From Octopus vulgaris (Eukaryota): DNA of 64,000 bases. Of the stretch, positions 11,335-61,749 are shown piece by piece (the stretch's first letter is position 1; each line of letters opens with the position of its first letter). Position numbers and translations under genes: made by a program. The stretch covers positions 89,094,001 to 89,158,000 of the forward strand of contig OX597823.1 of assembly GCA_951406725.2 (NCBI GenBank), written 5' to 3'. Below the pieces are notes generated by a model. The model searched no databases. It saw only the letters and a program-made list of their open reading frames with translations, and had not been told where the DNA came from.

Positions 11335-12910
11335 GCCAAGAAAATTTACTTGTTTAACCCCTCCCTTTTCCCTTAATATAAAAACTAACACAGGTAAAAT
11401 ATTCCTGTCTCTCCTAGGCAAACATTTTCCAGCAACTCACAGATACAGGAAATTTTTTTGATAGGCGCTCTGTAAAATTAACATGCAGGTGATGGCCCAG
11501 TATGGAGAGTATCATTATACGAGGTCAATAGGAAGGGCCTAATCCCAATTGTAACTCGTACAACCCAGGATCCTGTCCACTCGACCAACGATATATGATT
11601 AAATCTGTCGTATATAAGGTAGATGTTACTGCAACGCTAAATGATAATGCAACAGATAAGAAGGCCTACATTGGATTACGTAAAGGTTTGTGTTTGTGTT
11701 TATATACGTGTTACTGTTGTCGAAAAGAAGAACGTCAACCACAAGTTTTAAAGCCATGAACATCACCCCCGAAATAGTGTATCTATGACTATATAATTTC
11801 GAATGTACTGTAAGACGGCAGGGTTTGAGAAAGATTTAGCTGCAACTTCTAGCAGGTTGAAAAACCATATAGTCTGTCCCACCTCGTTAGCTAGTTGTAT
11901 ATACTTCGAACAACTTTCAGCGTTTGATTAAGAATAAGATAATGTTATGTGTCTGTGTGTTCTGCATCATTTCTTCTAGCTCGCTGGATGTGTGTGTGCA
12001 TTTTACTGTTTCGGATTTGTTGCTGCTGCCTTGTTTCTATTATAACTCGATTTATATCTGAAATGAACAATATGTATATAAATTAACTAAATACCACAAT
12101 GACATTTTCTTCGACGCTGGTCGTGTATGAAGTTTGAAAGCTAACGAATCACCACATATGATTAAATGGAAAATAATTGAGAAATCCACACCTTATGTTA
12201 ATGGTTCAAATAAATGTAGGCTATGTTTAACTGAAAGAGCTCAGATCCGTTTCATATCTAAGATCCCTAACTCTCTACTTAACTCTAAGTCTAACTTTTC
12301 AGCGATAGAATGCAAAACTGTCGAAAGTCCAAAACGTTGCTTTTTCAGAAAACGAAAAAATAGTTTCACTATTCCATAGCAAAACCGTTGTACTACACTT
12401 TGACACTTTATTGATATCCTAGCATCTAAAGCAGCCGAAAACACGATTGTTTGACCAAAAGAACCGGCTATTGCAAGCAAAAATAAATATTGAAAAAAAT
12501 GTGCATTTCGCCAAATTTGGACATACGACTGTTTAACCTAATAGTAATGATATGTATAAATATATTTTGAAAGCTGGAATATTTCACCTATACCTCATTA
12601 ACTTGTTGGTATCGTTCCAGCCTTAATATTTAAGGTTTAAGGAAGATAACATTTTTATCTTTTTTTTTACTTTTTACATTTTAGCCTTTACATTTTGCTT
12701 TTCCGTTTTTCGTTTTCCGTTCTTTTTTTGATCTTCCGCATTTTCTATATACTGCCTTCTCAGCTTTTTCATATTTTTTCTCTTAATCAATTTTTTAGTT
12801 TGTTATATGTGGTTTGTGCATGATGAATATGCTTGAGATATTTCTCAACATACGAAACTATTAGTAGCAATTAAAGACATGTGTTATGTCCATCAAATAA
12901 ATAATATATA
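11335..12910 (+). mobile_element. 5'-truncated, interrupted Penelope-like element (linker, GIY-YIG endonuclease and HHR-bearing 3' region)
   Basis: PPFSLNIKTNTGKIFLSLLGKHFPATHRYRKFF; SCPLDQRYMIKSVVYKVDV...KKAYIGL (GIY-YIG); IKWKIIEKSTPYVNGSNKCRLCLTE. T-rich 3' region ends in a hammerhead remnant. Insertions at ~11700-12030 and ~12310-12540. Confidence 0.85.
12817..12869 (+). ncRNA. Decayed type-I hammerhead ribozyme at the PLE 3' end
   Basis: TGC-aTGATGA-a-TATG(C)TTGAGA-tatt-TCTCAA-CATA-C-GAAAC-TATTA-GT-A-GCA. Stems intact; C3 and G10.1 appear substituted by A. Confidence 0.65.
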
Positions 12911-36244: not shown

Positions 36245-36409
36245 AGCGCAGGAGTGGCTGTGTGGTAAGTAGCTTGCTTACCAACCACATGGTTCCGGGT
36301 TCAGTCCCACTGCGTGGCACCTTGGACAAGTGTCTTCTACTATAGCCTCGGGCCGACCGAAGCCTTGTGAGTGGATTTGGTAGACGGAAACTGAAAGAAG
36401 CCCGTCGCA

Positions 36410-36455
<46 letters not shown>

Positions 36456-36670
36456 CGTGTGTGTTTGTGTGTCTGTGTTTGTCACCCTAGTATTGCTTGA
36501 CAACCGATGCTGGTGTGTTTATGTCCCCGTCACATAGCGGTTCGGCAAAAGTACTGGGCTTACAACGAATAAGTCCCGGGTCGAGTTGCTCGATTAAAGG
36601 TGGTGCTCCAGCATGGCCGCAGTGAAATGACTGAAACAAGTAAAAGAGTAAAAGAGTAAAAGAGTAAAGA

Positions 36671-36672
<2 letters not shown>
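36245..36672 (+). mobile_element. Near full-length SINE family B
   Basis: Colinear with 25295-25745 apart from a small internal deletion. Confidence 0.93.
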
Positions 36673-36738
<66 letters not shown>

Positions 36739-36744
<6 letters not shown>

Positions 36745-37427
36745 ATAGTTATCGCCATACTAATATGGCATTCTTATAAAAATAAGAAAAGCTGTCCGCT
36801 TATTAGCTCCATGAGGCCATCGCCTTAAGTTAGCTATTTGATACACAAACTGTATCCATATAACCTTCGAACAAGGGAGGCCTTAAGCTAACTTAAGGCG
36901 ATGGCCTCATGGAGCTAATAAGCGGACAGCTTTTTTCTTATTTTTATAAGAATGCCATATTAGTATGGCGATAACTATTATTTTCCGGGAACGCTGCCGC
37001 TGTTCTCTTTTAGAGAGACTTAGTTATTTTAATATTTCTATTATTGAAAACAAGTGGATGTATTCCACCGAAACTAGGTAAATAAAACCATCGAACAGAG
37101 ATTGTCGGAAGCGACACCTACTGGCTGGCTACGCTGCATTGAAAAGGGGCAATACCCCGAAACGCGTCTGTAGCTGCCGGTCAAGTAGTGTGGAGCGACT
37201 GACCTCCCTTGTTCGAAGGTTATATGGATACAGTTTGTGTATCAAATAGCTAACTTAAGGCGATGGCCTCATGGAGCTAATAAGCGGACAGCTTTTTTCT
37301 TATTTTTATAAGAATGCCATATTAGTATGGCGATAACTATTATTTTCCGGGAACGCTGCCGCTGTTCTCTTTTAGAGAGACTTAGTTATTTTAATATTTC
37401 TATTATATATTTCTATTTTAATATTTC

Positions 37428-37430
<3 letters not shown>
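36739..37430. mobile_element. Retrozyme-like element H2: 362-bp monomer (~1.44 units) preceded by a 142-bp inverted arm; inside (TA)n
   Basis: 36886-37044 is repeated at 37248-37406 (period 362). 36739-36880 is the reverse complement of 37203-37346 apart from a 2-nt homopolymer difference. Flanked by (TA)n on both sides. Confidence 0.92.
37133..37174 (+). ncRNA. Type-I hammerhead ribozyme with U3-A8 covariant core (H2)
   Basis: GCTGCA-TTGAAAA-GGGG-caata-CCCC-GAAAC-GC-GTC-TGTAGC. Stem I extends through GGCTGGC/GCCGGTC. Palindromic ACGCGT stem III; GUC triplet with predicted cut after 37168. Confidence 0.88.
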
Positions 37431-37475
<45 letters not shown>

Positions 37476-61540: not shown

Positions 61541-61749
61541 CATTCAAAATGTGACCGCGTGTGTACCGATGGCGAGTTTTTTTCCTCTGTCTTCCCTTCT
61601 CTGGATCTTTCCTTCTCCTATGTTTCCGACGAAGTGCTCCGCTCGAAACATTAAACCCTCCTTCTTTCCTTCTTTCCTGAACCTCCAATAATACTATATT
61701 TGTTCCACGTCCTCGCGTTGTTGTGTTTTTTTGTGCTTTCATGTTTGGA
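61541..61749 (+). mobile_element. ~210-bp hammerhead-bearing element (family H3) between (TA)n tracts
   Basis: Homologous to 15345-15545; HHR remnant at 61622-61656. Confidence 0.8.
61622..61656 (+). ncRNA. Decayed minimal hammerhead ribozyme
   Basis: GTTT-CcGACGA-A-GtGC-tcc-GCTC-GAAAC-aT-T-AAAC: three disruptive substitutions relative to the intact 15448-15482 copy. Confidence 0.65.

Follow-up and report, generated by a model that had tools for sequence, protein, structure and literature searches.

The 64,000-nt stretch of Octopus vulgaris DNA analysed here (the window) holds, between two (TA)n runs, a full copy of a non-coding 362-nt unit, followed by part of a second unit and preceded by an inverted arm. 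Throughout, unit positions q1 to q362 correspond to window positions 36886 to 37247. The features are as follows.

36672..36738, no strand: left (TA)n target microsatellite (window sequence)
36739..36880, minus strand: inverted arm of 142 nt (q318-362 plus q1-99), with its 3' end, the short end S, at the left TA run
36881..36885, no strand: 5-nt filler at the inversion junction (window sequence and arm limits)
36886..37247, plus strand: full 362-nt non-coding unit, 41.7% GC, no ORF longer than 38 aa
36981..36984, plus strand: short 3' end S (q96-99) within the unit (arms end at q88-101)
37041..37044, plus strand: long 3' end L (q156-159) within the unit (arms end at q153-166)
37115..37191, plus strand: type I hammerhead with extended stem I (fold and compensatory changes between subfamilies)
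37139..37145, plus strand: hammerhead core U3-U4-G5-A6-A7-A8-A9 (sequence and core counts in the family)
37162..37168, plus strand: palindromic stem III, ACGCGU, and predicted cut after C17 at 37168 (sequence and subfamily comparison)
37248..37406, plus strand: partial second unit (q1-159), terminating at the long end L
37407..37433, plus strand: 3' stutter, a short duplication of the terminal sequence (from sequence; the element ends near 37433)
37434..37474, no strand: right (TA)n target microsatellite (window sequence)

The original prediction had described a direct repeat of 159 bp at a period of 362, an inverted arm of 142 bp and (TA)n flanks. All three are present: the two repeat copies (36886-37044 and 37248-37406) are 159 nt long and 100% identical, the arm lies at 36739-36880 and TA runs stand on either side of the element. 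The copy has its S end on the left and its L end on the right, and the distance between S and L defines a tail of about 63 nt in the unit. Both sites would be start sites of reverse transcription, S as one and L as the second. The inverted arm carries a 2-nt deletion inside a T run, and positions 36880-36887, at the inversion junction, match the reverse complement of q7-14. No tRNA is found in the unit, and its longest ORF does not exceed 38 aa. Directly left of the element, positions 36250-36665 hold what we take to be a SINE-like repeat, which itself contains a TA run; many other loci are bordered by similar sequence. Elsewhere in the window are a decayed Hydra-like Penelope fragment (11357-12292), a reverse transcriptase (RT) fragment from another retroelement (1900-2592) and two further hammerhead-like motifs with short stems, at 61626 (plus strand) and 15478 (minus strand), which belong to a common repeat type unrelated to the 362-nt unit.

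The hammerhead is built of three helices around the core, with helix I open. Stem I pairs GCUGCA (37133-38) with UGUAGC (37169-74), giving 6 bp that include one G-U, and stem II consists of four G-C pairs (GGGG, 37146-49, with CCCC, 37155-58), followed by GAAA at 37159-62. Stem III (37162-67) has only 2 bp, closed by a 2-nt palindromic loop. The stems had been called well paired, a description that suits stems I and II and does not extend to stem III. A Watson-Crick 3-8 pair, a free position 7, the GAAA and a NUH cut site (GUC) are all in place, and C17 falls at 37168, where the cut had been expected. Compared with dinucleotide shuffles, the 101-nt hammerhead region folds at z = -3.5 and the whole 362-nt unit at z = -6.3. 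The core reads UUGAAAA at 37139-45, as claimed, and the literal CUGANGA core is absent. A strict CUGANGA search would therefore miss the motif, as foreseen, and so does Rfam, which gives no hammerhead model match at the gathering score or at E <= 10.

The U3-A8 core is a published variant and not a new one. Natural U3-A8 hammerheads and their activity in vitro were noted by Perreault et al. 2011 (PMC3088659), and about 1,300 U3-A8 motifs are described in the Cercyon Penelope-like elements of Schistosoma (PMC4209133), where a short palindromic helix III is reported to block cleavage of monomers and to favour dimers. The octopus unit has the core swap in common with the min-HHR of Schistosoma mansoni Cercyon and with the hammerheads of PMC3088659; with the former it also shares the short palindromic helix III, and both are thought to act as dimers. 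With a stem III of this type, a cleavage assay on a monomer could fail even if the ribozyme were intact. Unlike the min-HHR described in those sources, the octopus hammerhead has helices of canonical size (6 bp in helix I, 4 bp in helix II) and lacks the extra base between A9 and stem II. It also occurs in a homogeneous, recently active tandem family, whereas the Schistosoma motifs are described as heterogeneous and single.

Copies were counted in the 2.8-Gb genome. A 203-nt query returned 1,365 candidates, and all 40 that were scored proved 100% identical over the 203 nt. A core pattern that left positions 3, 7 and 8 free gave 833 exact matches, and one that required position 7 to be other than A gave 259; the two sets overlap slightly, and the reversed-pattern control yielded 0 in either case. 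On contig C1, 57 cores fall into 35 clusters, from which the 833 matches extrapolate to roughly 500 insertions. The copies belong to four subfamilies that are about 81-100% alike, A being 95-100% identical to the window copy and B, C and D about 81-88%; two further subfamilies with an altered stem II were found, for which counts are partial. The family is multi-copy, dispersed over many contigs and recently mobile. A recent, retrozyme-like insertion had been proposed for the window copy, and the identity of its two 159-nt repeats, together with the 40 of 40 identical copies, bears out its youth. At least two consecutive hammerhead units, that is two ribozymes in one arm, are present at 45 of 128 loci. 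The window copy has one, so that it cannot by itself release a 362-nt monomer or circle. Two copies of the unit are themselves interrupted, one by a full LINE with a zinc-knuckle ORF1 and an RT ORF2 (L115:2182-7543), the other by a repeat of about 780 bp (L088:1941-2722).

Other copies do not show random substitutions at positions 3 and 8. In the whole genome, C3-A8 was found in 2 copies, U3-G8 in 1 and C3-G8 in 0; apart from these three single changes U3-A8 is fixed. Position 7, by comparison, is A, C, G and U in subfamilies A, B, C and D, respectively, and stem III stays palindromic while its sequence changes (ACGCGU, ACAUGU, ACGU). In 11 haplotypes drawn from subfamilies A to C (D falls outside the alignment), pairing is 100% in all three stems, double changes affect three stem pairs, and shifting the stem partners lowers pairing to 30-50%. 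None of 500 shuffles matched the covariation score, a count that overstates significance and is not usable as a probability, the 11 rows being related haplotypes. The original prediction had argued for a selected ribozyme from covariation of the U3-A8 pair. That ground falls away, since the pair is fixed and does not covary within the family. Selection itself stands on other grounds: position 7 takes all four bases while U3 and A8 are kept and the stems compensate, which is good sequence evidence for selection on the fold, core and stems of the ribozyme. On this basis, and by the precedent of the mussel retrozymes (PMC7229834), the hammerhead is likely to be a functional ribozyme of the dimer type, an estimate tempered by the report that eight of nine Xenopus retrozyme dimers remained uncleaved in vitro (Li, Clavereau and Pollet 2026).

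The segment q159-199 (window 37044-37084), just 3' of the L end, is almost invariant and forms a hairpin with a decayed hammerhead-like layout. It was considered as a second hammerhead and rejected; the layout is disrupted in subfamily C and in some of A, and a good stem I is lacking. The hairpin resembles the ribozyme hairpin of the genome's Hydra element (see below), and the segment may be a protein-binding site.

To describe the insertions, 221 arms were mapped in 128 distinct loci, comprising the best BLAST hits, all core matches on contig C1, part of those on C2 and the first matches to subfamily B. All sampled loci hold the ribozyme region, which biases the sample toward arms that cross the cut site. 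Counts of single arms are slightly too high, the inverted partner at locus L173 having been missed by the arm caller. Haplotypes of the two arms were compared in 76 of 86 inverted pairs; the other 10 had too short an overlap or too few comparators.

The 3' ends of the arms fall into two clusters, S at q88-101 (102 of 221) and L at q153-166 (106 of 221), with 13 elsewhere; the 5' ends are scattered. A (TA)4+ tract lies within 40 nt of 187 of the 208 clustered 3' ends, against 686 of 6,429 background windows. Eighty-six insertions are inverted pairs with tails pointing outward, ten of them with one unclassifiable end. Among the 76 classifiable two-armed insertions, 74 combine one S with one L end, two are S+S and none is L+L (p = 8e-20 against an expectation of 50%). 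Loci L001 and L123 at first appeared to pair arms of different subfamilies, an appearance due to internal deletions. For 22 of the 86 pairs simple fold-back is excluded, because the longer arm does not cover all of the shorter one. At most junctions the arms share 1-6 nt, and of 11 near-symmetric junctions five fall at a TTCGAA palindrome. Taken together, partial tandem copies, an inverted 5'-truncated copy, a tail at one end and a microsatellite target make up a Penelope insertion signature. The two fixed 3' ends, which the earlier sequence reading had overlooked, are the more informative feature. A 24-nt insertion that holds just the S end of the unit, within a TA run (L212:2781-2803), is a minimal, abortive priming product. 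It lies beside a Hydra ORF and was considered as a link to a parent element, but entered the TA run as a small insertion in its own right.

The arms also speak to the template. Within an insertion the two arms differ on average at 1.2 of the polymorphic sites they share, compared with 5.0 for arms of different insertions (76 pairs), and at several loci a private variant recurs in all units of both arms (for example G310T in 4/4 at L142). Since both arms carry the same haplotype, these data point to one RNA source per insertion, for which a homogeneous array transcript would serve as well as a circle; gene conversion between arms may be an alternative explanation. More than one unit is contained in 114 of the 221 arms and more than two in 27, and 174 cross the cut site. 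Five-prime ends near that site (q280-290) number 15 of 221 where 6.7 are expected, and among arms that reach the site, 8 of 169 stop no more than 5 nt from it, in a sample biased toward crossing. We rejected this excess as a signal of cleavage, larger clusters being found at palindromes (q322-331) and the junctions fitting stem complementarity.

The genome was searched for elements that could mobilise the unit. One Penelope-like family has a period of 2,589 bp and an intact ORF of about 710 aa, with no match in Pfam, that carries the motifs RWK, DKT, CxCX5C, CxxC and CxH and lacks CCHH. By the published diagnosis (PMC8557442) this combination identifies the Hydra clade; an assignment to Nematis was dropped, the relevant rows in the supplement of that paper not fitting where the Hydra diagnosis does. 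The Hydra element has two 3' ends, 67 nt apart, and combines S and L in 20 of 22 two-armed insertions; many of these loci were picked for opposite-strand hits, which biases the number of two-armed insertions and not the S+L pairing. The family is very abundant and young, with 26,257 candidates at first look. Its own hammerhead has a U4C core (L255, G000:C10:93245500-93254000; L225-L274), and an older relative (L156) has the standard core.

A second family, with a period of 4,478 bp and an intact ORF of about 1,050 aa, is abundant and likewise inserts at (TA)n. We take it to be Neptune-like from its CxxC linker and CCHH, a name that leans on figure text in PMC8557442. Its insertions have one 3' end, and a single 35-nt inverted arm was seen in 20 loci with wide flanks, three of which extend past the fetched stretch. 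The unit shares the integration signature of the Hydra family (two ends, S+L pairing, TA target), and the Neptune-like control family does not; by signature the unit groups with Hydra. At L111:3280-3530 a young Neptune-like family (5,751 candidates) has a hammerhead-like motif that reads CUGUUGA; provided that the register is correct, this puts U at position 6. At L118:2780-2860 (minus strand) a decayed Penelope 3' region, a single copy with a poor stem II, holds a hammerhead-like motif that is maybe A3-U8.

A parent of the unit was sought by homology. No significant match to the Neptune-like, L114 or Hydra families or to Hydra relatives was obtained, and when the unit's tail was aligned to the Hydra element, 473 and 744 of 1,000 shuffles did as well as the real sequence in the two comparisons. 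The unit has no ORF with RT and GIY-YIG domains, and none lies in register at about 170 family loci. One contig, 1,999 nt long and bearing a diverged ribozyme, was set aside as a candidate parent, its matching flank being a single truncated genomic copy (L215). Direct junctions of the unit to a Penelope ORF are only two, both with Neptune-like GIY-YIG coding sequence (L043, L140), and one of them shows about 8 nt of microhomology.

We hold with good confidence that the window element belongs to a dispersed, non-coding 362-nt retrozyme family with a U3-A8 hammerhead, mobilised by Penelope-type machinery into (TA)n and probably by that of a Hydra-clade element. Mobilisation of the Penelope type is, on its own, highly probable; a Hydra-clade driver is reasonably likely. 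Points to the contrary are the following: among the families compared by sequence, no autonomous element homologous to the unit was found; both direct junctions to a Penelope ORF are Neptune-like; and a cleavage signal is lacking among the 5' ends. According to the proposed mechanism, a Penelope-like reverse transcriptase-endonuclease would cut both strands of a TA run, leaving two target DNA ends as primers for reverse transcription, which would begin at S and L and use RNA of a single source. The two cDNAs would then anneal through short complementary or palindromic stretches and be filled in. Less surely, multimeric transcripts would cleave themselves as dimers after C17 and be ligated into a 362-nt circle, and such a circle as template would allow arms to exceed one unit. 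The window copy would be a product of this cycle.

The last steps of this cycle are where the strongest competing reading departs from it. It accepts the same type of element and supposes that what is copied is linear RNA, read through a tandem array and left uncleaved, the hammerhead being weak or active solely at some other step; multi-unit arms would then come from array transcripts and from duplication at the DNA level, without RNA circles. We consider this a serious possibility, though not the one we favour. The 174 of 221 arms that cross the cut site speak for it, as do the unit duplications that arose in the DNA after insertion (L147, L176), the finding of two ribozymes in one arm at only 45 of 128 loci and the anole element, whose main substrate is uncleaved RNA with, as far as the account in PMC11167929 goes, no reads ending at the cut site. 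Against it stand the maintenance of core and stems by selection across four subfamilies, arms as long as 2,000 nt whose units all carry a private variant (5/5 at L155) and the mussel retrozymes of 350-390 nt, which are described as abundant circles (PMC7229834). A bolder form of our own preferred reading is speculative and less likely than not: a 362-nt circle made by the U3-A8 ribozyme would be copied at once by the two RTs of a Hydra-clade Penelope dimer, each strand starting from its own site, 63 nt apart, and rolling round, so that each two-armed insertion would record one such event, with the RNA recognised by shape and not by homology.

The driver could also be the young Neptune-like family. 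The two junctions at L043 and L140 favour this, as do the abundance and intactness of the family and its preference for (TA)n; yet its insertions are one-ended and nearly all single-armed, unlike those of the unit, and both junctions could be deletions at or after insertion, which makes it an improbable source. Less probable still is that the unit is the pseudo-LTR of an undiscovered autonomous Penelope-like element and that its copies are 5'-truncated products. Its ends and inverted arms are indeed of the Penelope type as described in PMC8557442, and the genome's other Penelope families were sampled only in part. What lies upstream of the ribozyme in every multi-unit arm, however, is the previous unit; no ORF separates the units, even in the longest case of 5.5 units, and an in-register ORF is missing from all of about 170 family loci. 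That DNA recombination spread the sequence, as a satellite or palindromic repeat whose likeness to a hammerhead is accidental, seems hardly credible: the absence of an Rfam hammerhead match would agree with it, whereas the fixed 3' and variable 5' ends, the copies on many contigs and the S+L rule do not, and conservation is confined to positions that a hammerhead requires.

On the RNA side, 20 of 23 listed runs contain the stretch, as contigs only, and no run is recorded as RNA. The unit and its subfamilies are present in eight examined runs that we guess to be RNA, as contigs lacking strand, ends or level. One contig (X9) closes as a 362-nt cycle, as tandem DNA also would. We lean slightly towards predicting 362-nt RNA circles, from the selection on the ribozyme and the mussel precedent, again tempered by the inactive Xenopus dimers. 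In run X10, a contig over window positions 37088-37221 has 21 differences, of which those listed are A>G on the plus strand; they include core A14 and A15.1 (37161, 37162) and are absent there from the DNA-like run X16. The pattern suggests a sense transcript that underwent A-to-I hyper-editing, in a single contig without matched DNA; if so, the changes would silence the ribozyme.

Retrozymes as a class, and their proposed link to Penelope-like elements, are already in print. Metazoan non-LTR retrozymes (PMC7229834; bioRxiv 10.64898/2026.07.22.740005) are described as non-coding tandem monomers of 170-400 nt with less than 45% GC, a range that includes the octopus unit (362 nt, 41.7%). They likewise have one type I hammerhead per unit and high structure, and occur alongside Penelope-like elements, of which they are proposed to be non-autonomous passengers. 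The octopus family differs from these descriptions in its U3-A8 core and in its insertions, most of which lie in (TA)n as inverted pairs with outward tails and two fixed ends; the main text of PMC7229834 contains none of the terms inverted, microsatellite and cephalopod. In Xenopus, 24 of 57 retrozyme families are reported to match transposable elements (Li, Clavereau and Pollet 2026), whereas no homologous pseudo-LTR was found for the octopus unit. Mussel retrozymes are known as circles (Cervera and de la Pena 2020, PMC7229834), which in the octopus are predicted.

Penelope-like elements are marked by inverted copies, by TA targets and by a tail delimited by two ends (PMC8557442); the origin of their tandem and inverted insertions and one-sided tail is named there as an open question. 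Hydra-clade elements (Craig et al. 2021, PMC8557442) encode protein; the octopus unit encodes none and has no significant match to the Hydra element of its genome. The tails of the unit and of that element (63 and 67 nt) are longer than the 30-40 bp described for the clade (PMC8557442), and the Hydra hammerheads listed in that paper are C3-G8 where the unit is U3-A8. In vitro work on PAc, a Poseidon element of Anolis, traces the Penelope-like tail to a pair of internal start sites (Frangieh et al. 2024, PMC11167929); as in our proposal for the octopus family, both target strands are cut and extended at an AT-rich target. The account of PAc gives no difference in start site between strands (PMC11167929), whereas in the octopus 74 of 76 insertions have two arms that differ in the site used. 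Ribozyme mutants are reported there to have no effect on insertion by the anole element.

By title and opening of abstract, outside the subscription journals, no paper was found on a cephalopod retrozyme or on a non-autonomous retrozyme family of Hydra-type Penelope elements. The connection between retrozymes and Penelope-like elements has so far been based on co-occurrence and pseudo-LTR homology. The octopus unit is a young, non-autonomous retrozyme family in which a Penelope-type integration signature is unusually well quantifiable. As a practical lesson, CUGANGA screens and Rfam overlook a family of about 1,000 motifs in the octopus genome. In hundreds of near-identical insertions, a strict rule of one S and one L end matches one Penelope clade and not another, and the 362-nt RNA would be a small substrate, with clear predictions, for a Penelope test-tube assay.
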